Below, piece after piece: positions 1-40,696 of a DNA stretch of 51,290 nucleotides. The notes under the pieces were generated by a model, which saw nothing but the letters and a program-made list of their open reading frames with translations, was not told the origin of the DNA and searched no databases. The DNA is taken from positions 6,327 through 57,616 of the forward strand of contig CAYMHI010000006.1 of NCBI GenBank assembly GCA_964390265.1, in the 5' to 3' direction. The DNA is from an uncultured Candidatus Saccharibacteria bacterium. Its GTDB lineage: Bacteria; Patescibacteriota; Saccharimonadia; CAILAD01; BJGX01. The translations under genes were made by a program, and so were the position numbers. Position 1 is the first letter of the stretch, and each line of letters starts with the position of its first letter.

Positions 1-254
1 TCGGCGTACTCTGACTCCACCTCGAGCAACACGCCTTCACCCTTGAGCTTTTCAGGCTTAATATCTTCATTTTTTAGACCCTCTGCTGAAATACCGGTGT
101 TTTTTTGAATTACCTTGCTAACCGAACGATAGGTGGTATAGGCGTAAGCACTCGATGCAACCAAGCATATCAAAAAAACTGCTAAGAGTATCTTGAGCCA
201 TATTCGTCTTTTTTTGGGTGGTTGTAATTTACTTTCAGAATTTTGAGATATCAT
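1..254 (-). CDS. Partial CDS (N-terminus only; gene runs off the window start): membrane-anchored protein
   Basis: ATG at 254..252 opens a minus-strand frame, absent from the ORF track, that stays open to position 1. It translates MISQNSESKLQPPKKRRIWLKILLAVFLICLVASSAYAYTTYRSV..., a basic stretch followed by a hydrophobic signal-anchor. It lies divergent to lepB. Confidence 0.4.
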   Translation of the reverse strand, partial: MISQNSESKLQPPKKRRIWLKILLAVFLICLVASSAYAYTTYRSVSKVIQKNTGISAEGLKNEDIKPEKLKGEGVLLEVESEYA

Positions 255-350
255 AAGATTGCAATCTAACTAATTGTAGGCTAAACGCATAAACTATTAT
301 ACCTTATTGCTTATGCATGTACGTCATTGGAGGTAATATTAAAATTAAAT

Positions 351-380
351 TCGACTTATAAGCTGTTATCTGCGTATAAT
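351..380 (+). promoter_or_regulatory. Putative sigma70 promoter of lepB (TCGACT-18-TATAAT); the -10 ends 7 nt before the ATG, so the mRNA would be leaderless or have a very short leader
   Basis: TCGACT at 351-356 and TATAAT at 375-380, with the ATG at 388. No SD lies between them; the GGAGG at 330-334 is too far upstream to serve lepB. Confidence 0.3.
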
Positions 381-387
381 ACTATAA

Positions 388-1212
388 ATGGATAGTAAAA
401 ACCAAAACACCGATTCAGATCCCAAGGCCGAAAAAACAAGCCATCATATTGGTCATGAGTTAAAATTAGGCGAAGAAATCAAACCACACGCCGAGACTAA
501 CCCGCAAGACGGAACAGTCATCAAAGACCATATAATGGTAACCGATAGTGACCAATACGAGAGTGATATAAGTAGCTTAAAAGAGCCATCCAACGATGAG
601 CAAGAAGACGAGACACCTGAAAAAAAACACTCCATTATAAAAGAGTTGTTAATTTGGGCTGCTGTGACAATTGCAATTGTTCTTATTATTCAAAATTTTA
701 TTTTTCAGGCATTTTATGTGTCTGGAAACAGCATGGAACCAGATTATCATAACGATGACTATCTCATAATTTCTAAAATACCTCTCACTACTTTTGATAT
801 TGGCAAATTTTTTGGGCAAAAAAATATCAATATCAACCGCGGGGATGTACTGGTGTTTCGCTATCCAAATGCTCCAGAAACATTCTTTATTAAGCGCGCT
901 ATTGGTTTACCCGGTGAACGAGTTACTGTAAAAAATGGCGTGGTCACTATTTATAATGACAAAAATCCACAAGGTTTGGTATTAAAAGAGTCTTATATCG
1001 ATTCTCAATACGTCACTCAAGGTGATATCGACGAGGTGGTAGAACAGGGCAAGGTTTTCGTAATGGGCGACAATCGTAGCCCGGGCGGTAGCTTTGACTC
1101 GCGCGAGTGGGGCCAATTGCCCCAGGGCAATATTACTGGCTTTGCTGCCTTGCGACTTTTACCGGTAAGTACACTAAAATTTATTACCGACCCCACATAC
1201 TCTGAACAATAA
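388..1212 (+). CDS. lepB: Signal peptidase I (S26 family) with an acidic low-complexity N-terminal extension
   Basis: SGNSMEP motif containing the catalytic Ser, plus the KR.IGLPGE and GDNRSPGGSFDSREWG boxes. A TM anchor precedes the catalytic domain. Confidence 0.9.
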   Translation: MDSKNQNTDSDPKAEKTSHHIGHELKLGEEIKPHAETNPQDGTVIKDHIMVTDSDQYESDISSLKEPSNDEQEDETPEKKHSIIKELLIWAAVTIAIVLIIQNFIFQAFYVSGNSMEPDYHNDDYLIISKIPLTTFDIGKFFGQKNININRGDVLVFRYPNAPETFFIKRAIGLPGERVTVKNGVVTIYNDKNPQGLVLKESYIDSQYVTQGDIDEVVEQGKVFVMGDNRSPGGSFDSREWGQLPQGNITGFAALRLLPVSTLKFITDPTYSEQ

Positions 1213-1234
1213 TTTTTAACTAATAATAATTGTT

Positions 1235-2154
1235 TTATACTGTCGGTTCAGTACCGGTAATAGTGGCAAAAATACGGGCCAGCTCTTCGTCTGAATAGTA
1301 TTCTATTTGTAGCTTGCCGCCCTTAGCAGTTTTGTGAAGACTTACTTTGGTGCCTAAATATTTACCAAGGTCTTGGGTAAGCTTTCGTTGTGGTGCCTCG
1401 GCCTCTTTTACCTTGCTCCGTTTAATTTCTACGCCAGACTTAAATTCTCTAATTAAAGTTTCGGCGTGACGAACTGTTAAATTGTGCTTGATAATGTAAT
1501 TGAGAAACTGATCTTGTTTGACTGGGTCGGTTAATGAAAGAAGGGTGCGAGCATGGCCTTCGGTAATAATACCCTCATTGAGAGCAGTCTTGGCCTTGTG
1601 GGTAAGGTTTTGTAAACGAATAATGTTAGTAATAGTAGATGTTGCCTTACCCACCGACTCACCAATTTTTTCGTGAGTCATATTAAACTGATCAACTAAT
1701 TTTTGGTATGCCACTGACTGCTCTAATGGTTTTAAATCTGAACGCTGAACATTTTCAATTAAGGCTACCTCGAGCTGTTGTTGCTCATTATAGGTACGCA
1801 CTATTACTGGTACACTAGTAAGCCCTGCCAGTTTGGCGGCACGCAAGCGGCGCTCACCAGCTACTAAATTGTATTTCCAGTCGTTTTCTGCGGTAACAAT
1901 AAGTGGCTGTATAATACCGTATTGTTTAATGCTCTCGGCCAACTCTTGCAGCTCTTCTTCTTCAAAATCGGTACGGGGCTGGTAGGGATTGGCGTCAATG
2001 TTTTCTATAGGAATCTCAGTAACAGTCTTACTACTTACGCGCACCTCTTGTGGAAGTGTGTCAGATGCAAACTCATCCACCTGATCAATTTGATCTGGAA
2101 TAAGTGAATCTAGGCCCTTGCCCAGTCTACTGCTACTTGCTTGGTTGTTCGACA
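1235..2154 (-). CDS. parB: Chromosome partitioning protein ParB/Spo0J
   Basis: Contains the GERRLRAAKLAG ParB box, the N-terminal GKGLDSLIP motif and an HTH region. The ORF extends to 2221, but a GTG at 2154 preceded by AGGAGA is the likely start. Either way it overlaps the 3' end of parA. Confidence 0.85.
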
Positions 2155-2903
2155 CGCCTAGTGATCTCCTTAGTAAGCTTTTTATATGCGAATGCACCTC
2201 TGCAAAACTTATCGTAAGCATAAATGGGTTTGCCGTGCGACGGTGCTTCTGCTAATCGTATATTGCGCGGTACTGTAGTGTCAAATAATAACTTGCCAAA
2301 ATGCTTGTTGAGCTCACTCATCACCGCCGAGCTTAGGCTGGTGCGACCATCGTGCATAGTTACTACCACACCCAGCAACTTTAGACTGGGGTTGAGTGCG
2401 GCACGTACTCGCTTAACAGTATTTAGCAGTTGGCCCAGACCTTCTAAGGCATAATACTCGGCCTGTGCAGGTATAAGTAAATAGTTAGCTGCTACCAAGC
2501 CGTTAATTGTGAGTAGCCCCAAGGATGGTGGGCAATCAATAATTATATAATCATAATCAAGCCCTTGAAGAATAGTTTTGAGTACAAACTCTCGGCTTTG
2601 GCGACGCGCCAGCTCAATCTCGGCAGCGGCGAGGTGTGAGTTGGCCGGTAAAATTGCCAGGTTTTTATACTCAGTTTCAACAATACAGTTTTGAGCTAAA
2701 ACACTCCCTTGCAACACATTGTATATACTGTGCTGCAACTCGGCTTTATTAATGCCCAATCCACTCGAGCTATTTCCTTGAGGGTCTAAATCTATCAATA
2801 GAGTAGATTTACCCATTTTGGCTAAATAAGCCGCAACATTGATTGCAGTAGTTGTTTTGCCCACGCCGCCTTTTTGGTTCGCAATTGCAATACAATGCGC
2901 CAC
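2133..2903 (-). CDS. parA: ParA/Soj family partitioning ATPase
   Basis: Deviant Walker A KGGVGKTTTAINVAAYLA and 256 aa. It sits immediately upstream of parB on the same strand. Confidence 0.92.
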   Translation of the reverse strand: MAHCIAIANQKGGVGKTTTAINVAAYLAKMGKSTLLIDLDPQGNSSSGLGINKAELQHSIYNVLQGSVLAQNCIVETEYKNLAILPANSHLAAAEIELARRQSREFVLKTILQGLDYDYIIIDCPPSLGLLTINGLVAANYLLIPAQAEYYALEGLGQLLNTVKRVRAALNPSLKLLGVVVTMHDGRTSLSSAVMSELNKHFGKLLFDTTVPRNIRLAEAPSHGKPIYAYDKFCRGAFAYKKLTKEITRRVEQPSK

Positions 2904-3092
2904 TTTTTGTTTTGCCTCCCTCGGTGTATTATTCTTAAGTTAAGTGTAGCATATCTCGAGCATTTTTTTCAAGTAATGCGAAACTTTGGCGAACACTAGC
3001 ACCAACTGTATCTCTACTCTTTACAAATAGCTGTATATTTGCTACAATTGTGCATTAGTAACCAATATCTATAAGGTATATACAAAAAAACT

Positions 3093-3401
3093 ATGTTAGC
3101 AGTAATAGAAACCGGATCAAAACAATATATTGTAGAAAAAGGCCAAACACTTGAGGTTGAGCTTTTACATAACGAAAAACCAGAAGTTGAGTTTAAGCCT
3201 CTACTAATTATCGATGGTGAGAACATTAAGGTAGGTAAGCCAATTGTGGCCGGTGCTCTGGTAAAAGCCAGTGTTGCCGACGAAGTAGTAAAAGGTAAAA
3301 AGCAAGTAATATTGCACTACAAGGCCAAAAAACGACAAAGCACCAAGACTGGTCACCGTCAAAAGTACTCAGCCATTACTATTACCGATATAAAAGCTTA
3401 G
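3093..3401 (+). CDS. rplU: 50S ribosomal protein L21
   Basis: MLAVIETGSKQYIVEKGQTLEVE... matches the L21 N-terminus (MYAVI.TGGKQY.V) over 102 aa. No rpmA follows it. Confidence 0.9.
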   Translation: MLAVIETGSKQYIVEKGQTLEVELLHNEKPEVEFKPLLIIDGENIKVGKPIVAGALVKASVADEVVKGKKQVILHYKAKKRQSTKTGHRQKYSAITITDIKA

Positions 3402-3516
3402 AATTTCAAATAAATTACGCCCTCCAAGACATCCCAAACATGATTTGGATGAAATGATATCTATTCATATTTTTATTGATACATTTTTAAGATCTCAAAA
3501 TCTTCTTTAAATGTAA

Positions 3517-4986
3517 TTATTTGCAGGCTTCTACCAATGGATCACCAACTATACGTGCTTGCATCCAAGCCAAGGTGTCTTTTAAGCTGGCGTTCATAGT
3601 TTGATAATGATCTACTAAACCAGTAGGATTGTAGCCCTGTATCGCATAGGGGCTAGTATTGTATTCTTTTAAATTTACTTGGTTACCAGATTGGCATAAC
3701 CTAACATAACTAGCACGGTTTTGGCGTGGCAATACAACGTTGTCGTGTAGCCCTTGATTAATTAACTTGGGTGTTGTGGTTTTTATTGGGCCAACTAGGT
3801 TTGACTCCATATCAGCCTGAAACTGTGAATATATAGGATTGCTAGCAATATTGCCGGACTGAGCAGCCTTAATAAACTCGGGTGTGTATATTTTGGCAGA
3901 TCTATTAACGCCTATATTGTTGGGCCAGTATTGATTAACGCTGTCAATGCATTCCCTAGTAGAGTCGGCCTCAATTGTTTTGTTCCAGGGTGGCATAATA
4001 ATCTTATTGACGGGATAGCTGCGCTTATACCAGTCTTGATAGCTAGTGAGTACGAATGGGCCAAACCAATTAATGTTGGCATTATTAACAATAGCATCTG
4101 TTAGTGTCTCGTTTACGCTAGTAACTGGGCCAAACCCTATACTGCCTTTTAATTTAATATCTGGTGCATACTTGTCTGCAATAGCATCGGCCCAGAATGC
4201 GGCGTGTCCACCTTGGCTGTAACCACCCGTAAAAATAGCCTCGTCATTGATACTGTTTTTGCTGCTATCTAGATTATACAAAGCTCTAATACCATCTAAA
4301 ACAACCCTACCCTCAATGTCACCTACCATATAATGATGAACTCTGGCAGGATCTCGCATGCCCTCATAATCAGCTACCACTACCGCATACCCCTGGCTAG
4401 CGTATGCCGCCATTAGGCTGTCGTAATTTGCCCAATTTCTTTTTTGAGGTTGTTCCAAACTAGCAGCACAGCCATCGCCAATTCCAGTAGTACCGGTAGC
4501 AAAAGAAAGGACGGGTAGTTTTTTACCCTTGGCATCGGCGGGTAAATAAACCTTTGCATAAATTGGAATATCGCTAGTATTACCATCTGAGCTAGTATAG
4601 CTTATAACTTGTTTGGTCATACCGGTGTTTACTGGTAGATCAAAATTACGATTGGTTTGTTTTATTAAAGCTTGAGTTTGGGCAGCAGATAATACTTGCT
4701 CTGGCTCGGTGGAAATAATTTTGCCAGTTGTTATGGCCGGTGGTTTGGTTTGTTCTACCTGTTGTGCCGGGGTGTTGTGAATAACATTTCGGGCATCTAC
4801 GTAGGCTTTCCAACGCAGCCATCCCCCCAAAGCAATCATAATAAATATTTCAATTCCTAGTATTATAAAAAGTTTTTTGTTTATTTTTTTATTATTAGAT
4901 TTGCTATTAGCATCAGGTAGAGTTCTGTTACTTAGCGACTGTTTATTGGTATTATTACTCATATTAACGTGATTATTTTTTTTCAT
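3517..4986 (-). CDS. Secreted or membrane-anchored alpha/beta hydrolase, secretory-lipase (LIP)-like
   Basis: N-terminal TM anchor followed by a GYSQGG nucleophile elbow (GxSxG) in a roughly 400-aa extracytoplasmic domain. Confidence 0.55.
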   Translation of the reverse strand: MKKNNHVNMSNNTNKQSLSNRTLPDANSKSNNKKINKKLFIILGIEIFIMIALGGWLRWKAYVDARNVIHNTPAQQVEQTKPPAITTGKIISTEPEQVLSAAQTQALIKQTNRNFDLPVNTGMTKQVISYTSSDGNTSDIPIYAKVYLPADAKGKKLPVLSFATGTTGIGDGCAASLEQPQKRNWANYDSLMAAYASQGYAVVVADYEGMRDPARVHHYMVGDIEGRVVLDGIRALYNLDSSKNSINDEAIFTGGYSQGGHAAFWADAIADKYAPDIKLKGSIGFGPVTSVNETLTDAIVNNANINWFGPFVLTSYQDWYKRSYPVNKIIMPPWNKTIEADSTRECIDSVNQYWPNNIGVNRSAKIYTPEFIKAAQSGNIASNPIYSQFQADMESNLVGPIKTTTPKLINQGLHDNVVLPRQNRASYVRLCQSGNQVNLKEYNTSPYAIQGYNPTGLVDHYQTMNASLKDTLAWMQARIVGDPLVEACK

Positions 4987-5462
4987 AATTCACCTTTTAC
5001 CATTAAATACATATCTACATTATAATCTACGTTAGAAATTATTCTATCTATATTGTAACCAGCTCGCTCATAAAAATGCTGTTGATTATGGGTTACTAAT
5101 TGAATTGATGCGACACCCCCTTTTTTTAATGTAAGTTCTGTTTCACTCAATAAAAGCTGTCCCAATTGTTTTTTGCGCAATACCGGATCAATGTATAACC
5201 AGTACAAAAAGGCTTGAGTATTGTCTTTTTGTATGCCCGCTATTGAATAACCTTTGAGGCTGTTACCATCATAAATGCCAGTATATAAGCGCTTGGGATG
5301 TAGAGCGCCAAGACATAGCCTTGTTACATTGTTAGTACGACGCACATTCTGACGATATTCAGGCGAAAAATATGCAAAATCTTTTTCTAGTGCTTGATCA
5401 AAGAGATTGTAGAGTTTACCTCCATGAACAAATGGTATTTTTTTGATAAGTATATTTGTCAT
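4983..5462 (-). CDS. GNAT family N-acetyltransferase
   Basis: LYWLYIDPVLRKKQLGQLLL fits the acetyl-CoA binding motif A (R/Q-x-x-G-x-G/A) in a 159-aa protein. It overlaps the upstream gene by 4 nt. Confidence 0.55.
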   Translation of the reverse strand: MTNILIKKIPFVHGGKLYNLFDQALEKDFAYFSPEYRQNVRRTNNVTRLCLGALHPKRLYTGIYDGNSLKGYSIAGIQKDNTQAFLYWLYIDPVLRKKQLGQLLLSETELTLKKGGVASIQLVTHNQQHFYERAGYNIDRIISNVDYNVDMYLMVKGEL

Positions 5463-24143: not shown

Positions 24144-26264
24144 CTACTCGTAGGTGGTCATGCCCTCATCGACTGACTCAGCCGAGGAGTCGCCTTCTGA
24201 TGGCGTGGCTTCGGTTGTTGGGTCGGTCGCGAGCTCGGGCTGAGCAGAATCGTTACTGCCCATGAAAGAGCCGCCATCGGCGCCATTGCGCATCGCCATC
24301 GCGAGCAATGCATCTAGCATACCACTTCCGGCGCCCTGGCCACCCACAAGGATATCGGGCGTCAGGTTGATGTTGCCATCACCAATCTCGTGCAGAGCAG
24401 CAACGACCGCCGTCTGTTCGGGACCAATGGCATCCTTCTGTGCCTCGTAGCCAGCTGCCACAGCAAGACCCTTGGCCTTGGTTGTCTCAGCTTCAGCCAG
24501 ACCAGTTGCCTGAATGGCACTGGCATTGGCATCACCGGTGATCTTGGTGATATCGGCCGCTGCCTGGCCCTTCTGACGTGTGACCTCAGCCTCGCCTTCA
24601 GCCTGCTTGACAGCTGCCTTAGCTTCAGCATCTCTGACGTCAATATTGACGTTCGCTCGAGCCAAATCGGCCTGAGCATCAGCCACACCCTTCTGGTTCT
24701 CGAGAGCAATACGTGCCTGCTCGGCTACCATCTCACTCTCGTACGTTGCCTTCTGCTGAGCCGCGATCTCTCGCTTTGTGAGTACTTCAACAAGCTCGGG
24801 CGGGAAGACTACGTCCTGAATGTAGACACCTCGCACCTCAACCTCATAGCGGGTCAAGTACGTAGTGATATACTGTTCGGCCGCAGCCTGAACTTCGTCA
24901 CGTTTCTGAATGAACTCAGCAGCACCGAGTGACTGCAACTTGTTACGGAAGTAGTTGCCTACCGCCGATTGCAGCACCTCATTGACAAGATTCTGCATGG
25001 TCGCAACCATGCTGATAACCTTCGGTGCCCTAGTATCAGGTACGTGAATCTGCACCTGTAAATCAATACTGAAGTCGAATGCCTCCCTGCTCATGGCATC
25101 AATTGCAGACAATCGCGCATCAAGATCATGAGCTTCGCTGGTAGCGTTGGCCCAGTTTAGCGTCAAGATAGACGTCGGAACGATCTCGGCCTCGTAGATA
25201 CGAGGGTTAAGGGTATACTTGCCGGTGCGCATCGGCTCCGACCAAATACCCTGATGACCCGGCTTAACAATAGAGCCAAACTTGAACTCATTACCAGAAG
25301 TGTCTTCAGTCGGCAAGCCAACATAGGCCTTGATGACAGCTACCTCGCCCTGACGGACGACGAGCATGTCGCGGATCTCGACTTCTACAAGATAAGGATT
25401 GAGCAAGTATTGCCCGTAGAGCAATGGGTCGTGCTGCAAACCAATACACCCACCGGCGTCCAGAAAGGCCTGGAAGTCCTGATAGTTATCGTGCACTTCA
25501 TTTTGCGGAGCCAACACTTTGGTAATGATGGTATTGGCCGGAATGCCCTCTGCCTCGGCTGCGATGACATCATCATAGCCACCAAGTCGACTGGCAATGC
25601 CCTTGGCCGCTGCGCCTTCTAGGGTAGTGACCACACCAACCTTGTCAGTATGCCCCTCTGGTCTAATAGTGAATGGTTTGAACTTACTTCTGTCGACCAT
25701 GTGTAAAACATTCTTGGTACTTTCGGAGAGGACTTCACCGAAGGTCTGCGAAGCAGTCTGTACCACGAAGGCAATGGGGTGCATCTGCTGGGTAGTACCC
25801 GGAGGCAAAACCTTTCGCTGCACACCACGCTGTCCTCCATTCGATAAGAAGGCATTGAGATCTGCGAAAGATCCAAATTCTTCCTTGTCTACACCTGTCT
25901 TCACACCCCGAGGAAGTTCTTCGCCTACTTGAGCGACAACTACGCCAATCTCATCTGGCGGCACTTGCACCATCTGACACTTCTTGACCAAGAAGATCGG
26001 CCAAAGCTTGAAGCGTGTACCCGGTTGTAGCAACTCTGCTTGGTACCCTGCCTCACCATGGAAGGCAATCAGATGCCCATCGTTAAGCTTCTTTCCAAAT
26101 CGCTTCTCGACTAGTCCGAACTGGTCGGGGCCGATGCTATGGATGCTCTTTGTGACGAACCGCCACGCAAAGAACGCAACGATCAGCAGTAAGACGCCTA
26201 GCACTATTGGAACAACCGGAATACTCATGGCTGCACCAATCATATATATATGGGAATGTACCAT
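24144..26264 (-). CDS. Flotillin-like SPFH/band-7 protein (FloT/YqiK type) on a GC-rich island
   Basis: N-terminal TM, an SPFH domain and a long Ala/Glu/Gln/Lys coiled-coil flotillin C-terminus (EAKAAVKQAEGEAEVTRQKGQAAAD...). The start is uncertain: ATGs occur at 26264, 26243 and 26228, and the ORF extends to 26336. GC-rich codons throughout. Confidence 0.8.
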   Translation of the reverse strand: MVHSHIYMIGAAMSIPVVPIVLGVLLLIVAFFAWRFVTKSIHSIGPDQFGLVEKRFGKKLNDGHLIAFHGEAGYQAELLQPGTRFKLWPIFLVKKCQMVQVPPDEIGVVVAQVGEELPRGVKTGVDKEEFGSFADLNAFLSNGGQRGVQRKVLPPGTTQQMHPIAFVVQTASQTFGEVLSESTKNVLHMVDRSKFKPFTIRPEGHTDKVGVVTTLEGAAAKGIASRLGGYDDVIAAEAEGIPANTIITKVLAPQNEVHDNYQDFQAFLDAGGCIGLQHDPLLYGQYLLNPYLVEVEIRDMLVVRQGEVAVIKAYVGLPTEDTSGNEFKFGSIVKPGHQGIWSEPMRTGKYTLNPRIYEAEIVPTSILTLNWANATSEAHDLDARLSAIDAMSREAFDFSIDLQVQIHVPDTRAPKVISMVATMQNLVNEVLQSAVGNYFRNKLQSLGAAEFIQKRDEVQAAAEQYITTYLTRYEVEVRGVYIQDVVFPPELVEVLTKREIAAQQKATYESEMVAEQARIALENQKGVADAQADLARANVNIDVRDAEAKAAVKQAEGEAEVTRQKGQAAADITKITGDANASAIQATGLAEAETTKAKGLAVAAGYEAQKDAIGPEQTAVVAALHEIGDGNINLTPDILVGGQGAGSGMLDALLAMAMRNGADGGSFMGSNDSAQPELATDPTTEATPSEGDSSAESVDEGMTTYE

Positions 26265-26489
26265 GTCCTTATAGGACCTTTCTCTAGGGAATACTTTCCG
26301 ATGCGCTATTATACAGACGAAATGAAAAATACGCAATAGTTTTGTTTTGCATAAGCCCTTTAGGATTATTTATTGCTAACAGATATACTACAACCCTACG
26401 CAACCAACTAACAACTAAGAAAGTTGGTATAAATGAAAAACCGGCCTGCTCTCTGGGTCAGAGAACAGACCGGGTGTTGCTGGTGGTGC

Positions 26490-32888: not shown

Positions 32889-33761
32889 TTAGTTCTTAAT
32901 CTCTAGCGAATATTTAAGCAAAGTAAGAGAAGAATATGCTACCATTTGTACATAATTTAATGCAAATTCTTTGTTGATATCTTCATCTTTTGTAAGGGAA
33001 TTTTGGTAGTCAAATAGATAGTTCACCAAATCAAAAAAGAAAGCGATTGTGTTGATAACTGGCGACATACTATTTTCATCAAATCTAAGATGTAGAAACT
33101 CATTCTTTCTGAAAGAATCTGATCTCATTAATTTAGCTCCAATATCAAAATTATAAATAATACTTTTATATTTTTGTTTATTCATACAGTCACTCCTTAT
33201 ACTCCACCCAATAAGCTGTATAATATTAGTATTGTTACTAATAATTTTCATAATCTTTAGTCTAGGTTCCACAGTATGTACTAAATCATGTCTGTAAATC
33301 TGTATTAAGTATTTACTATACTTTCTATATCTTGCCTTCATATCTTTAGGTCCAAAAGACATTAACAGTTTACTAATATTACCTGTACCTTTACCATAGG
33401 AACTATTTTTATCGGGGCCATATCTTAACATAGATACTAAATCTATATAACAAAAAATATTTCTTAATACTGTAAATGGTGCTCCACCAGCTGTTACTTC
33501 GGGTGAATTTAATAGAGGGTAAACATCGTCACGTAATTGATCAATAAGAACACCTATGTATTCACTGGGGGTTATTAACCCGCAATTATATTTCAAATAT
33601 GGCTCAATTCTACTAGCCTCTTCAATGGCCGTAATATCATTAATAAATTCGTATACCCTAGCCCGATCGCCATCAGCCAATCTAACTAAATTTTTGTCCT
33701 TTAAAATTTTATCTAGTACTTCATTTCTGAACGCTTGTGTATTGTCTTCCCAGCCGCTCAT
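32889..33761 (-). CDS. Hypothetical protein within the defense-like island; possible HEPN/Abi-like (Rx4H motif)
   Basis: 290 aa and very AT-rich. It contains QIYRHDLVH (R-x4-H), but I recognise no other homology. Confidence 0.45.
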   Translation of the reverse strand: MSGWEDNTQAFRNEVLDKILKDKNLVRLADGDRARVYEFINDITAIEEASRIEPYLKYNCGLITPSEYIGVLIDQLRDDVYPLLNSPEVTAGGAPFTVLRNIFCYIDLVSMLRYGPDKNSSYGKGTGNISKLLMSFGPKDMKARYRKYSKYLIQIYRHDLVHTVEPRLKIMKIISNNTNIIQLIGWSIRSDCMNKQKYKSIIYNFDIGAKLMRSDSFRKNEFLHLRFDENSMSPVINTIAFFFDLVNYLFDYQNSLTKDEDINKEFALNYVQMVAYSSLTLLKYSLEIKN

Positions 33762-33800: not shown

Positions 33801-34964
33801 CTAGCGATTACCCTTTGCACGGTTATGGGATATGCATAGCATTTCGCAGTTGCTAATGTCGGTTTTACCACCATTACTCCAGGCTGTTACGTGATCCGCA
33901 TCCATTTCAGATAACTTATATATACGGTCTTTGTTATTATTATTCCCAGAAGCACAAACGGGGCAATTTGATACTCCTTTTGCTTCAGCCTTTGCTGTTT
34001 GTTGTGCATAAGCCGTCTTAATCGTAGATGGTTCAAATATGCGTATTTTTAGCAATGAAGGGTCCTTCATGCCACCAAGAATGTACTCAAAAACACCTTT
34101 CTTCCTGCGTACTTCGTAATTCGTAAAAAGCTCTCTAACTTTGGATGCAACCTCTTGTGGATCATAAGAATTAGAACCGTAATCTTTGTACAAGCGATTC
34201 CATTCAAGCCCACGCATTTCGCTATGAACATCTGTGAAAATATTTGAAGCCCAATCTATGACCTTGTCGAAATGACTTTTAAGTTCTTCTATGTTGCCAT
34301 CATTACGATGCTTACTCATGTAGGCATCTATTCGCCCATTGCTTACCCAATCCAGCGCTGTCTCAAGGAAGTCTTGCCGCTTTACATCGCCGGCAACGTA
34401 GGCACTCCATTTTTGAACATTAGCATCTTGACTGTTACTAAAAACTTCCTTTGCCTTTGTCACGAATGGCCCATGATAGACTGCATTTCGAATTTCTTGT
34501 ATTTTTAAAGGTACACCAGCAATGTTAATGGTCTCAAACCATTTCATCATTTCTTGCTCTTCACCCTCGCAGATATAAATGAGTAACTCTTTATCTAATA
34601 TCAATTTACGCTGTGCTTCAGACATTCCACTGTAGTATTGTTCGTGATCATTAGCGTCTTTAACTGCAAACTTGCCTTTAACAAATCGGCCAATACTAGT
34701 AATTCGTTGTTGGCCATCTAACACCTCGTACTTATTGCCACCAATTTTATTAAAATAGATAATACCAATTGGATAGCCCTTTAATATGCTATTTATTACA
34801 GCAACGTCCTTTATGCCGTCGGCATAAATATAATTTCTCTGATACTCGGGCTGAATTGTGAGCTTTCCCGTAAGTCCAAACAAACCTTTTCCTTCAAACT
34901 CATTGTATTCAAATCCATCTACTATCTCTCTTATGGTAATGTTAGTATTTAGTGTTGTAATCAT
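33801..34964 (-). CDS. DUF262 (ParB-like nuclease/NTPase, DGQQR motif) fused to a C-terminal HNH endonuclease
   Basis: The N-terminal domain carries the ILDGQQRITSIGRF hallmark of DUF262/GmrS-like domains. The C-terminus is an HNH (His-Me finger): CPVC..(n)..DADHVTAWSNGGKTDISNCEMLCISHNRAKGN. ATGA overlap with the upstream MTase. Confidence 0.8.
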   Translation of the reverse strand: MITTLNTNITIREIVDGFEYNEFEGKGLFGLTGKLTIQPEYQRNYIYADGIKDVAVINSILKGYPIGIIYFNKIGGNKYEVLDGQQRITSIGRFVKGKFAVKDANDHEQYYSGMSEAQRKLILDKELLIYICEGEEQEMMKWFETINIAGVPLKIQEIRNAVYHGPFVTKAKEVFSNSQDANVQKWSAYVAGDVKRQDFLETALDWVSNGRIDAYMSKHRNDGNIEELKSHFDKVIDWASNIFTDVHSEMRGLEWNRLYKDYGSNSYDPQEVASKVRELFTNYEVRRKKGVFEYILGGMKDPSLLKIRIFEPSTIKTAYAQQTAKAEAKGVSNCPVCASGNNNNKDRIYKLSEMDADHVTAWSNGGKTDISNCEMLCISHNRAKGNR

Positions 34965-36136
34965 TTTAGTGCCTTTCTATGTTTAATAAGTATTCGCGAG
35001 TATACTTTTTTCTTATTTACAACACCAACGCCTTGACCTGCACCCTCCGCCCCAGAGACATTAGGAATAAAACCAGTGATTTTTAATAATTCTTTCGGCA
35101 TATTTGCATAAGAGTTCCCGCTAGCTTGCCAGATTATTTCGAATTGATCAGGGTTATATTTATCTAAAAAACTAATAGGTACACCCATGATGCCGTCGAA
35201 GTCTGATGGGATTGCATCTGTATATGGCACCTCGATTGCATTGTAATTGTCGTATCTTCTATATGCTGAATCGCTTTTAGTAATCTTTTTATTAAATTTT
35301 TTATTATCTGCCATAGTCATGATTGCTAAAGGTTGATGCCGTCTGCCGTGGTCAAGGTTTGTAAACCAGCAAGAATTACCCAGCCTCGTAAAGTCACCTT
35401 TGTATCCTAGTTTTTCAGCTTTCTTCTTATAAGCAGGGGGCACATCAGAGCCTTTAGGAACAGCAAATACCATATCGCTAGTATAGCCCGTAGCCCCTTG
35501 CCACATCTTATTTTCTCTAATTAACGGAAAAATTTCTTTATATATTACTGCACCAATATTACCTATAATCAAGAACTTTTTATCATACTTAACTAGCTGC
35601 GCTACATATTCACGGAAAAGGCTGAAGGGCGGGTTGGTAACAATAACGTCAGATTTATTGAGTAGTGCAACGCACTCATCGCTGCGAAAATCGCCATCCC
35701 CCTCGAGTGGAGCCCACTCATTATTCTTATTTGCCTTGAGCTGTTCAGCAATGTCTGAAATATTGAAAGCTCCATCACCATCCATGTCATGTACATCGTT
35801 TATAATAAATAAATTTGCATTAACTTTTGGCCTACCCTTTTCAGGCTGAATAGTTTTATCGTCACCAAATAATGCAAGTTGTGTATTAGCTATCGGCGAA
35901 GGTTTGTAGCTTGTAGTAATGAGTTGCTTGAGGCCTAGACGGTTAAAATTAAGTGCAAAATAGCGGAAAAAGTTACTTTCAAAAGGGTCATCGCAATTAC
36001 AATAGACAACTTTTCGACGGAAAGAATTTGGATCATATTCGAGATATGCTTCTATTTCTTTTTGAATGTCAGCAAATTGAGTGTAGAACTCATCATTCTT
36101 TGCACTTTTAGCTGCACTTAAATTAGTATTTGCCAT
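34961..36136 (-). CDS. N6-adenine DNA methyltransferase, M.EcoRI-like family
   Basis: NDEFYTQ...VVYCNCDDPFESNFFRYFALNF...DVIVTNPPFSLFREY (motif IV NPPF)...GIMGVPISFL. The domain order and motifs resemble M.EcoRI-family enzymes as I recall them. Confidence 0.8.
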   Translation of the reverse strand: MANTNLSAAKSAKNDEFYTQFADIQKEIEAYLEYDPNSFRRKVVYCNCDDPFESNFFRYFALNFNRLGLKQLITTSYKPSPIANTQLALFGDDKTIQPEKGRPKVNANLFIINDVHDMDGDGAFNISDIAEQLKANKNNEWAPLEGDGDFRSDECVALLNKSDVIVTNPPFSLFREYVAQLVKYDKKFLIIGNIGAVIYKEIFPLIRENKMWQGATGYTSDMVFAVPKGSDVPPAYKKKAEKLGYKGDFTRLGNSCWFTNLDHGRRHQPLAIMTMADNKKFNKKITKSDSAYRRYDNYNAIEVPYTDAIPSDFDGIMGVPISFLDKYNPDQFEIIWQASGNSYANMPKELLKITGFIPNVSGAEGAGQGVGVVNKKKVYSRILIKHRKALK

Positions 36137-36199
36137 TAATCTCCAAGGTTTAATTAACTCTAATTATACTACTTTTTCAGATAAGCAGACAGGTTATTC

Positions 36200-38420: not shown

Positions 38421-39098
38421 TTAAGTAGACTGTTTAATCAACACAGCGCTATTGTGCTTGGCGCTATTAACCTCGCTTGAGACAGTGTAGGCGCTCATAT
38501 CTTTGGCTTTGTATGGCTGCAGTAGGTGTTCCAAAAATCCAATGTCATCATTGGCCTTGGGGCTAATCCAGTCGTCCTCTTGGCTGGGCTCTAATATAAC
38601 CGGCATACGGTCGTGTATGGGCTTAACTACCCCATTGGGGTTGGTGGTAATAATGGAGTAACTACGGATGACTTCACCGCTGGATTTGTCTGTCCACTCA
38701 TCATATAGCCCGGCAAAGGCAAAGGTATCCTCACCGGTAAGGTGTATGTAGTAAGGGGTTTTGGTACTGCCGTCGCGCCGCCATTCATAAAATCCACTAG
38801 CTGGCACCAAACAGCGTTGCGACTTAAAAGGGCGTTTCCAGGTAGGTTTTTCGGCCAAGGTCTCGGCTCGGGCATTTATCATCTTGTAGCCTATAGTGGC
38901 GTCCTTGGCCCAAACAGGGATAAGCCCCCAACGCATCAGCTCGAGCTGGTTGCCTTTGCCGCTATTGGTGATTACCGGCATGGTCTGGCCGGGCGCGATA
39001 TTGTAGTTGGGTTTGATCTCACCAGCCGGCTTGCCCTGCACTCCAAAACGAGTGATGAGTTTGGCCTTGCCACTAACGAGGGTGTATCTTCCGCACAT
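38421..39098 (-). CDS. SOS-response associated peptidase (SRAP/YedK/HMCES family; abasic-site DNA-protein crosslink)
   Basis: The N-terminal MCGRYTL carries the catalytic Cys2 of SRAP proteins. 225 aa. Confidence 0.9.
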   Translation of the reverse strand: MCGRYTLVSGKAKLITRFGVQGKPAGEIKPNYNIAPGQTMPVITNSGKGNQLELMRWGLIPVWAKDATIGYKMINARAETLAEKPTWKRPFKSQRCLVPASGFYEWRRDGSTKTPYYIHLTGEDTFAFAGLYDEWTDKSSGEVIRSYSIITTNPNGVVKPIHDRMPVILEPSQEDDWISPKANDDIGFLEHLLQPYKAKDMSAYTVSSEVNSAKHNSAVLIKQST

Positions 39099-39171
39099 AG
39101 GTATAATTATACACTTTTGCGGTCAATTTTGCTCTTGCATTTGTTCGCTATATGTTCGTATAATATAGAGT

Positions 39172-39432
39172 ATGATAGAGCCGGTAAACCAAGCTGTAGA
39201 TATACTCTCACTCTCACGCAAGGGGCGAGGTATAGTGGTGCCTTTGCGGATGAAGTGGAACAACAAGACCTATGAGATCAAAAAAATAGGCTTGCGCCAC
39301 CCCGTGCGCGAGGGTCGGGTGCTTTATCATATATTTGAATGTAGCGATGGCAACCTAAGCTTTCGGCTCAGACATAATACTGAGTCTTTGCAATGGACCC
39401 TAGAGGCAATTAGTGATGGCCTACCTGCTTAA
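39172..39432 (+). CDS. Small protein immediately upstream of, and overlapping, the Y-family polymerase gene; possible polymerase accessory subunit (YolD/UmuD analogue)
   Basis: 86 aa. It overlaps the polymerase ORF by 17-20 nt. No domain recognised. Confidence 0.4.
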   Translation: MIEPVNQAVDILSLSRKGRGIVVPLRMKWNNKTYEIKKIGLRHPVREGRVLYHIFECSDGNLSFRLRHNTESLQWTLEAISDGLPA

Positions 39433-40696
39433 CTCATCAGAGCTATGCAAAGATAATCCGCAAACCATGCACATCGATCTCAATAGTGCCTTTGCGACTA
39501 TTGAGCAACAAGCCAATCCATTGCTGCGCGGTAAACCGATAGGTGTGTGCTCGTATACTAGCCCGGGCGGGATAATTCTGGCGGCTAGCTATGAGGCTAA
39601 GGCGCTAGGCATAGTTACCGGCACACCGGTGCGCCAAGCCAAAGCCATCTGCCCAAATATTGTAGTGATGATGCCCGACCCCGATAAGTATTATTATGTG
39701 AACTCCTTGCTGTATCGTCTGCTGGGTAGATACACCTCAGATATTACTCCCCTCTCAGTCGATGAGTTTGTGCTCGATTTTAGCCGCAGCCGCAGCGTTA
39801 ACCCTCGCCCACTTACGCAAATAGCCCGCGAGATAAAGCGCAGGATTCACTATGAAATTGGCGACTGGATGCGCGTAAATATTGGCATTGGTACCAATCG
39901 GTTTTTGGCCAAGACAGCGGCTAGTTTGCACAAGCCCAATGGGCTAGATGTAATAAGCCATAATAATTTGCACGAGGTATATGCTAGCTTGGAGCTGCGT
40001 GATTTGTGCGGCATAAACTATCGCATGGAGTCGCGGCTAAATGCGGCGGGTATTTTTACACCATTAGAATTTCTAGAGGCCAGCGCTGAGGTACTCAAAA
40101 AACGAGTTTATAAAAGCATAGAGGGCTACCGGTGGTATCAGCGCTTGCGGGGCTACGAGGTAGATGGGGTTACCTATGGGCGCAAATCTTTTGGTAATGA
40201 TTTTGCTATCTACCAAGCGACTGCCGACCGGCACGAGTTGTCGCGAATGATAATGAAGCTGTGCGAAAAAACTGGCCGGCGCCTGCGACGCAATAATTAT
40301 TTTGCCCGCGGTGCCCATTTGTGGCTACTATACGATGATAATACCTATTGGCACACCGGCAAGAAATCGCAGACTGTTCTCTACTCTACCAACGATATCT
40401 ATGAGGCCATTATGCGCGTGTTTAATCGTCAGCCCGAATACAAGCCGGTGAGCAAGATTGGCATATCGGTCTATGGCCTAGAACCAACTCGGCCCGAGCA
40501 AATAGAGCTGTTTGAAACCATAGCTACCAAACAGCGACAAATTGCTGGCGCAGTCGATAAGACCAACGACACTTATGGCGAGTTTACACTTATACCGGCG
40601 CTGATGATGAATATGAACGATACTATTATTAAGCGCGTACCATTTGGTGGTACTAAAGATCTTAAACTTCTCTACAGCCAATACGCCAATATCTAG
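39416..40696 (+). CDS. Y-family DNA polymerase (UmuC/DinB/UvrX-like) with catalytic residues intact
   Basis: MHIDLNSAFATIEQ is motif I (D..F.A.VE) and LSVDEFVLDF is motif III (SIDEAFLD). Alternative starts are the GTG at 39413, the ATG at 39416 and the ATG at 39467 directly before motif I. Confidence 0.85.
   Translation: MAYLLNSSELCKDNPQTMHIDLNSAFATIEQQANPLLRGKPIGVCSYTSPGGIILAASYEAKALGIVTGTPVRQAKAICPNIVVMMPDPDKYYYVNSLLYRLLGRYTSDITPLSVDEFVLDFSRSRSVNPRPLTQIAREIKRRIHYEIGDWMRVNIGIGTNRFLAKTAASLHKPNGLDVISHNNLHEVYASLELRDLCGINYRMESRLNAAGIFTPLEFLEASAEVLKKRVYKSIEGYRWYQRLRGYEVDGVTYGRKSFGNDFAIYQATADRHELSRMIMKLCEKTGRRLRRNNYFARGAHLWLLYDDNTYWHTGKKSQTVLYSTNDIYEAIMRVFNRQPEYKPVSKIGISVYGLEPTRPEQIELFETIATKQRQIAGAVDKTNDTYGEFTLIPALMMNMNDTIIKRVPFGGTKDLKLLYSQYANI

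Follow-up and report, generated by a model that had tools for sequence, protein, structure and literature searches.

The restriction-modification (R-M) system BanLI of Bifidobacterium animalis consists of an EcoRI-like methyltransferase (MTase) gene, product 41.7 kDa, followed by a restriction gene, product 43.5 kDa (PMC3990576). The methyltransferase, M.BanLI, which its discoverers aligned with M.EcoRI, modifies 5'-RTC(m6A)GG-3' (m6A, N6-methyladenine) on one strand only, and the authors read BanLI as an 'incomplete Type IIS system' from which a second methylase had been lost (PMC3990576). When BanLI was cloned in E. coli, plating of P1vir went down to about 0.1, while pre-methylation by M.BanLI raised transformation 1.8-fold (PMC3990576). 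In B. animalis subsp. lactis, the REBASE Type II restriction endonuclease for RTCAGG is a 'DUF262 domain-containing protein' (PMC13091528, 2026). The best-known enzymes with DUF262 domains, GmrSD, BrxU and SspE, are of Type IV or sense modification (PMC12707154). Here we analyse a pair of adjacent genes, encoding an adenine MTase and a DUF262-HNH nuclease, within a 51-kb stretch of DNA from a Saccharibacteria-like genome (1–51290, referred to below as the window). By sequence comparison, the pair is a member of the BanLI family, a family listed in REBASE and mechanistically unstudied. It is very probably a classical R-M cassette in which methylation blocks cleavage, and which was probably acquired horizontally.

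Identification of the pair as a member of the BanLI family

Both genes are on the minus strand, with the same coordinates as in the initial annotation, whose description of an adenine MTase gene coupled to a DUF262-HNH nuclease gene is confirmed by the open reading frames (ORFs), the Pfam domains and the ATGA junction:

34961..36136, minus strand: N6-adenine DNA methyltransferase, EcoRI family, 391 residues, 44.2 kDa (Pfam, PADLOC and homology to M.BanLI)
33801..34964, minus strand: restriction endonuclease, R.BanLI family, 387 residues, 44.1 kDa
34961..34964, minus strand: ATGA overlap of the MTase stop (TGA) and the nuclease start (ATG), read from the sequence and expected to couple translation

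The layout is that of a Type II system, with separate adjacent MTase and endonuclease genes, identified by PADLOC as MTase_II and REase_II. The nuclease matches the PADLOC 'Type II restriction enzyme' profile REase_II (PDLC03418) over residues 7–386 with E = 2.8e-89, and is 40% identical to R.BanLI over residues 9–387 of 387 (E = 5e-100). R.BanLI itself scores 905 bits on PDLC03418, over positions 1–372 of 372, and the profile is therefore essentially the R.BanLI sequence. The MTase is 45% identical to M.BanLI from end to end (E = 1e-108).

The BanLI locus was recovered by searching gut metagenome contigs for the sequence of BanLIF, a published primer. In the recovered locus (L219), an integrase gene is followed by M and then by R, which is 372 residues long; the M stop and R start overlap, and M ends in ...EEAQGK, which matches the prediction from the reverse primer. 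The window pair resembles BanLI in having two genes, M ahead of R, whose stop and start overlap, in its domain architecture (M of 363–370 residues in BanLI against 391 here, and R of 372 against 387), and in matching the same PADLOC profiles. It differs in the phylum of its host and in its surroundings: an integrase gene adjoins BanLI, whereas MazG-like and DUF2130 genes flank the window copy, which has an orphan ORF downstream. The initial annotation had described the architecture as unusual, which was an overstatement, given that the REBASE-listed BanLI has the same one. The literature on DUF262-plus-HNH Type II enzymes and on EcoRI-family enzymes gave no direct pointer to a characterised enzyme, and BanLI was reached by way of DUF262 together with REBASE.

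A word-indexed protein search with the window nuclease gave at least 8000 candidates at E ≤ 1e-5. The best 120 of these are nearly all 386–394 residues long, with identities of at least 66%, and the named entries among them come from Candidatus Saccharibacteria or other Patescibacteria. The exact sequence of the window nuclease has no entry in the contig index. When cluster representatives were searched exhaustively, 5049 proteins matched at E ≤ 1e-3, of which 407 (50%-identity clusters) did so at E ≤ 1e-30, and in these representatives the full-length architecture is kept down to about 34% identity. Among contigs from one genome per species, at least 581 stretches contain a relative of the nuclease; the best 80 were taken as genomic loci, and span Saccharibacteria, other Patescibacteria, Clostridia, Bacilli, Bacteroidota, Chloroflexota, Treponema, an alphaproteobacterium and Ignavibacteriae. 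The pair is also found on plasmids, in Enterococcus faecium, Moraxella osloensis, lactic acid bacteria and actinobacteria. The REBASE entry from one Bifidobacterium strain stands for a very large family that extends over many phyla.

Domain structure and conservation of the nuclease

We read the nuclease as being composed of three parts: a nucleotide-binding part (residues 1 to about 165), a helical DNA-binding part (about 166–330) and a zinc-finger HNH domain (334–387). The corresponding features are as follows, where NTPase denotes nucleoside triphosphatase:

34476..34859, minus strand: ParB/Srx-like DUF262 (GmrSD_N) NTPase-type domain, residues 36–163 (Pfam PF03235, E = 3.4e-20)
34704–34718, minus strand: DGQQR, a DUF262 motif, residues 83–87
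33966..34475, minus strand: putative helical middle region, residues about 164–333 (all-helical in the AlphaFold2 model; PADLOC NsnA match as far as residue 213)
33804..33965, minus strand: zinc-finger HNH nuclease domain, residues 334–387 (Pfam PF01844, E = 3.2e-7)

The match to PF01844, with its four-cysteine zinc finger, agrees with the classical HNH domain of the initial annotation; the residues concerned are C334-x2-C337, D357-H358, N372, C373-x3-C377 and H380-N381. In addition to DGQQR, the DUF262 domain contains the motifs YQRNY (residues 41–45) and INIAG (146–150). All of these are strongly conserved: YQRNY and INIAG are invariant across 40 homologues, as are DGQQR, the four zinc cysteines and D357-H358/N372/H380-N381 in the 40-sequence alignment. 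Inactivating substitutions in DGQQR or HNH, which would have spoken against the proposal of an active enzyme, were looked for in relatives, and the motifs proved to be intact in 119 of 119 full-length close homologues. The full-length cluster representatives, 107 in number, include sequences of as little as 34% identity; DGQQR is present in 102 of them and a recognisable HNH core in at least 94, with most of the exceptions resembling frameshifted metagenomic fragments.

The structure of the nuclease was predicted using AlphaFold2, which gave a model of moderate quality (predicted local distance difference test, pLDDT, 77.4; predicted template modelling score, pTM, 0.61) in which the middle region is all-helical. 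Fold matches to the DUF262 part are sulfiredoxin, PadC, ParB, SspE and DndI, and those to the C-terminal part are the HNH domains of McrA, Gme and Cas9; Foldseek returned the same themes but without significance. BrxU is the best structural match of the nuclease in the fold search, and was also the only match, a marginal one (E = 0.046), in a profile search of the PDB. A sequence search of the PDB found no relatives of either the MTase or the nuclease, and NCBIfam contains no model that matches the pair.

The PADLOC profile NsnA matches the nuclease over residues 33–213 (E = 2.4e-30), a span that takes in part of the helical middle region as well as DUF262. The equivalent region of NsnA, GmrSD and SspE, located after DUF262, has been termed a ParB-associated DNA-binding domain, 'ParBDB' (PMC12065111). 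From this analogy and the predicted model, the middle region of the window nuclease is probably a DNA-binding module of the ParBDB type, and is a candidate for the sequence reader. The NsnA protein of the Menshen system (PADLOC PDLC03877) is similar in having DUF262 followed by a helical DNA-binding region, described as a 'ParB-DUF262 + ParBDB' sensor (PMC12065111), whereas in the window nuclease DUF262 and a DNase are joined in one protein by direct fusion, and the gene is paired with an MTase. PADLOC gave no match to NsnB (ABC ATPase) or NsnC (effector) in the MTase, the orphan ORF or the DUF2130 gene, and neither of them is part of the conserved pair.

GmrSD, BrxU, SspE and DndI are likewise similar in the order of their parts, with an N-terminal ParB/Srx-like DUF262 containing DGQQR, then a helical region and, at the C-terminus, a His-Me finger nuclease, and the window nuclease has the N-terminal DUF262 of GmrSD and BrxU with DGQQR intact. 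However, these enzymes are 560–770 residues long compared to 387 here, and they act on modified DNA or sense backbone modification and need no cognate MTase, whereas the window nuclease is linked to one. On the model of GmrSD, BrxU and SspE (PMC12707154), the first two parts of the window nuclease may both read the site and sense m6A, with nucleotide binding gating cleavage; dependence on nucleoside triphosphate (NTP), as suggested in the initial annotation, would be expected from the intact DUF262 motifs.

The methyltransferase

The MTase matches the Pfam family EcoRI_methylase (PF13651) with E = 7.6e-126 and 420.5 bits, against a gathering cutoff of 26.4; the alignment covers residues 5–386 and profile positions 1–344 of 345. 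It also matches PADLOC MTase_II with E = 5.7e-105. The catalytic motifs of S-adenosylmethionine-dependent N6-adenine methylases are present, both identified as sequence motifs:

35975–35995, minus strand: motif I-like CDDPFES, residues 48–54
35624–35635, minus strand: motif IV NPPF, residues 168–171

The C-terminal 55 or so residues are particularly variable, and many tblastn matches end at residue 335.

R.EcoRI is a PD-(D/E)XK enzyme whose recognition site, GAATTC, is a palindrome with methylation on both strands. The resemblance of the window pair to the EcoRI system is limited to the MTase, a full-length member of the Pfam family of M.EcoRI; the DUF262-HNH nuclease is unrelated to R.EcoRI, and BanLI, the only characterised relative of the pair, has an asymmetric site methylated on one strand.

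Linkage and co-evolution of the two genes

An EcoRI-family MTase gene is located directly upstream of the nuclease gene, on the same strand, in all 78 determinable nuclease-anchored loci, the other two of the 80 beginning at a contig end. The two genes overlap in 42 of the 78 (32 of them by the same ATGA, −4) and are 0–17 nucleotides (nt) apart in 25, making 67 loci with an overlap or a gap of at most 17 nt; in the other 11 there is an inserted gene or a spacer of 197–3151 nt. The linkage extends to plasmids and to nuclease relatives of only 34–39% identity. The pair recurs in the same gene order across hundreds of genomes, and its occurrence is therefore far beyond chance. One protein of 688 residues is a fusion of EcoRI_methylase, GmrSD_N and HNH; its weight as evidence is small, since one indel at an ATGA junction would be enough to yield such a fusion.

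The two proteins also co-evolve: the matrices of pairwise identity for M and R from 68 complete pairs are correlated (Mantel r = 0.60, permutation p = 0.001). Over the same pairs the mean pairwise identity is 72% for the nuclease and 60% for the MTase. To our knowledge, Type II systems usually show the opposite, with the methylase better conserved than the nuclease.

The inserts between M and R differ between loci. They are found at L026 5666–6004 (also in L034, L038 and L054), L040 4919–5998 and, at about 3127–3978, in L182–L191. One is a 112-residue ORF with no Pfam match, which is translationally coupled on both sides; others, from independent lineages, encode a RhuM-family or a Bro-N protein. 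The inserts might be regulatory or might provide additional defence.

Methylation as protection or as target

The occurrence of the two genes in viral sequences was analysed using IMG/VR contigs anchored on the MTase, where an MTase was called solitary only if at least 1.4 kb of sequence followed it downstream; on this definition 76 loci were determinable and four ended too early. The nuclease is present in 53 of the 76 (in one of them, L088, in the order R then M) and absent from 23. The solitary MTases adjoin genes for gp32, DNA polymerase A (PolA), portal protein, terminase and thymidylate synthase (ThyA), and are phage genes. In the converse analysis, anchored on the nuclease, 41 viral loci contain the MTase and six are indeterminate, since the contig end is too close or the nuclease match is partial. 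L185 is likewise indeterminate, its upstream sequence being too short in view of the gene inserted in its sister loci.

The nuclease is thus almost never alone, while phages carry the MTase alone, which argues for a toxic nuclease and a protective MTase. The initial annotation had regarded a solitary MTase in relatives as evidence against its proposal; solitary MTases do occur, but only on phage contigs, as predicted for a protective methylase, and the nuclease is essentially never alone. Taken with the BanLI experiments, the linkage in 78 of 78 loci, the Mantel correlation, the mobility of the two genes as one unit and the invariant catalytic and NTP-site motifs, this asymmetry between M and R supports the first of the two models that had been put forward, that of an MTase-protected restriction enzyme. 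We infer that methylation blocks cleavage in the window member also.

The second model, in which the MTase marks phage DNA for the nuclease, implies a Type IV-like system: the DUF262-HNH enzyme would cut m6A-containing DNA, and the co-transcribed MTase would make this substrate on invading DNA. This is suggested by DUF262 itself, best known from GmrSD, BrxU and SspE (PMC12707154), and by BrxU as the best structural match. We consider it extremely improbable. An MTase constitutively co-expressed with the nuclease would mark the host chromosome too, making the pair suicidal, and for a phage to carry the MTase by itself would be self-destructive. Type IV enzymes such as GmrSD and BrxU are encoded by stand-alone genes with no cognate MTase, whereas the nuclease here is free of an MTase in none of the 78 genomic loci and in one case is fused to it. 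Pre-methylation in the BanLI experiments improves, rather than reduces, the establishment of plasmids. Finally, the C-terminal domain is the classical zinc-finger HNH PF01844, and no DUF1524, the C-terminal domain of GmrSD, was found in the Pfam scan. DUF262 is not by itself diagnostic of a Type IV system: here it occurs in an enzyme that methylation very probably blocks.

In a methylation-blocked cassette of this kind, the two genes would be expressed from a single transcript, the MTase first and then the nuclease, coupled via ATGA; with M before R in this arrangement, the nuclease would not be made without its antidote. The single EcoRI-family MTase would set m6A at its recognition sequence in host DNA. 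Unmethylated sites would be found by the ParB-like DUF262 domain together with the helical middle domain and cut by the zinc-finger HNH domain, and, if GmrSD, BrxU and SspE are a guide, a nucleotide bound at DGQQR probably gates or stimulates this step.

Points against a simple methylation-blocked cassette

Several observations weigh against this interpretation. The first is a single viral locus, L183 (IMG/VR 3300029046_000012, 1–5173), which spans 9.2 kb and contains the only intact nuclease to have no MTase in its locus. The place of the MTase is occupied by a CI/LexA-like repressor region, in an element with an integrase and, as judged by eye, a probable relaxase; the methylase may be supplied by the host in trans, or there may be some other reason why this copy is tolerated.

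Secondly, avoidance of a recognition site was not detected in the window or in the 860 kb of pooled host loci. Depletion was calculated using a maximal-order Markov model for all 4-, 5- and 6-mers in the window and the 80 host loci, both pooled and for each locus, and revealed generic palindrome avoidance only (GGCC, CTAG, GATC and CATG), with nothing specific to the carriers. RTCAGG is not depleted in the window or the pooled loci, at an observed/expected ratio of about 0.8–1.1; the specificity of the window pair need not be RTCAGG, however, because it is only 40–45% identical to BanLI.

Thirdly, restriction by BanLI is weak, with an efficiency of plating (EOP) of about 0.1 and an effect of 1.8-fold on transformation, and the literature that we found contains no published cleavage site or NTP requirement for BanLI. 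Lastly, if methylation is confined to one strand, one of the two daughter duplexes would lack protection after replication, and the plain Type II picture may therefore be incomplete.

If one-strand methylation is general in the family, the protection of the host after replication needs to be explained. Type III and Type ISP enzymes combine one-strand methylation with NTP-driven long-range communication between two sites, and ParB proteins are CTP-gated sliding clamps. The window pair could work in a comparable way, as a two-site, NTP-gated system in which a mark is placed on one strand of an asymmetric site, the ParB-like domain acts as a clamp or communicator switched by nucleotide, and the nuclease cuts only where two unmethylated sites have a fixed orientation; this requirement would protect freshly replicated host DNA. 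We regard this as possible but doubtful. The resemblance to Type III and Type ISP systems may be one of functional analogy only, in the single MTase, the probably asymmetric one-strand mark and the NTP-binding domain, and the window pair differs from them in having neither a helicase or translocase domain nor the Mod/Res organisation.

The number of methylases is consistent with a two-site mechanism. There is exactly one EcoRI-family MTase in each of the 78 loci, and a second one within ±6 kb in none of them; no methylase of another family is adjacent in the close relatives that were inspected, although no systematic screen was made for a second methylase of another family. A single MTase being the rule in 78 of 78 loci, BanLI does not appear to be a degenerate system that has lost its second methylase. 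The motifs of the NTP site are invariant, and the greater conservation of the nuclease (72% against 60%) would fit a constrained multi-step machine. On the other hand, methylation of one strand by M.BanLI (PMC3990576) is documented in a single member of the family, 40–45% identical to the window pair, and DUF262 may simply bind DNA. Enzymes of the MmeI type, moreover, survive with one-strand methylation and no proven orientation rule. That the BanLI family as a whole might form a widespread and unrecognised class, which applies the logic of Type III and ISP systems through a ParB/Srx NTPase in place of a helicase, is on this analogy unlikely; if true, such a class would explain both the absent second MTase and the nuclease being more conserved than the methylase.

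The weak restriction by BanLI (EOP about 0.1) and the lack of site avoidance in the hosts would also be consistent with a largely selfish or decaying cassette, having an active MTase and a nuclease that provides little defence, and maintained mainly by post-segregational killing and horizontal transfer. The presence of the pair across phyla and on plasmids, and the shifts in neighbourhood between close relatives, point in the same direction. This seems improbable in view of the strong purifying selection on the nuclease (72% mean identity, with all catalytic residues invariant), and because the carriage of solitary MTases by phages implies that they face a genuine threat from the nuclease. In addition, addiction and defence can coexist. 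A methylation-blocked R-M cassette is retained as the preferred description of the pair.

Mobility of the cassette

Relatives with nucleases that are 87–89% identical occupy unrelated neighbourhoods, and the mobile unit is the M-R pair. The G+C content at third codon positions (GC3) is 0.32–0.35 in the R-M genes and 0.48–0.52 in the flanking genes, and the cassette was probably acquired horizontally by a Saccharibacteria-like genome. No convincing repeats or inverted repeats marking the boundaries of a mobile element were found near the cassette. The cassette would be relevant should its Saccharibacteria-like host be transformed.

The neighbouring DUF2130, MazG-like and NUDIX genes were considered as components of the system and rejected, as none of them is conserved with the pair.

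Expression signals

Two candidate signals upstream of the MTase gene were identified by eye:

36163..36168, minus strand: putative −10 box TATAAT, a perfect hexamer about 27 nt upstream of the MTase gene
36141..36144, minus strand: candidate ribosome-binding site GGAG, 4 nt ahead of the MTase ATG

TATAAT was missed by the consensus promoter scan, because it lacks a good −35 hexamer. The scan for promoters and terminators found fewer promoter-like sites than in shuffled sequences and, between the MTase and nuclease genes, no minus-strand site resembling a terminator. The palindrome TTAATTAA at 36150–36157 (minus strand), with TATAAT on one side and GGAG on the other, could serve as an operator or could be mere chance in AT-rich DNA. 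In a relative with an 89% identical nuclease (L084), a 63-residue HTH_17 protein, which is absent from the window, is encoded directly upstream of the MTase (1115–1306), and could be a controller-type regulator.

Neighbouring genes and other features of the window

The orphan ORF downstream of the nuclease lies in the same low-GC insert:

32889..33761, minus strand: ORF290, 290-residue orphan ORF, 39 nt downstream of the nuclease gene, GC3 0.25

ORF290 is absent beside the pair in the 80 genomic loci and is outside the conserved cassette. It has only 10 homologues among 5.8 billion proteins, and at lenient thresholds none of the 10 family members matches Pfam, PADLOC, NCBIfam, PHROG or the sequences in the PDB. 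In five of six independent contexts, ORF290 abuts unrelated defence genes. The contexts are the window R-M pair; an operon of a C5-methylase, a 342-residue ORF and Vsr; a 1059-residue MmeI/Eco57I-type enzyme; an AAA_15/AAA_21 ATPase; and a ResIII/SNF2 helicase. The family has an invariant motif, YRHDLVH, which fits the HEPN signature Rx4-6H, and the association of HEPN genes with R-M systems is a known theme (PMC3710099). The motif and contexts are suggestive of a HEPN-like accessory defence gene.

No Rfam family was matched anywhere in the window, and correspondingly no tRNA or rRNA gene was detected in it. The GC-richest stretch, 24144–26336 on the minus strand (0.51–0.54, compared to 0.42 overall), encodes a 730-residue protein with an SPFH/Band 7 domain, and its composition suggests a separate foreign origin. 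At 38421–40696, about 2–4 kb from the R-M pair, genes for an SOS-response-associated peptidase (SRAP) and a Y-family polymerase (IMS) are adjacent to each other. In one relative (L083), a gene for a Y-family polymerase, together with a Peptidase_S24 gene, is also found near the pair.

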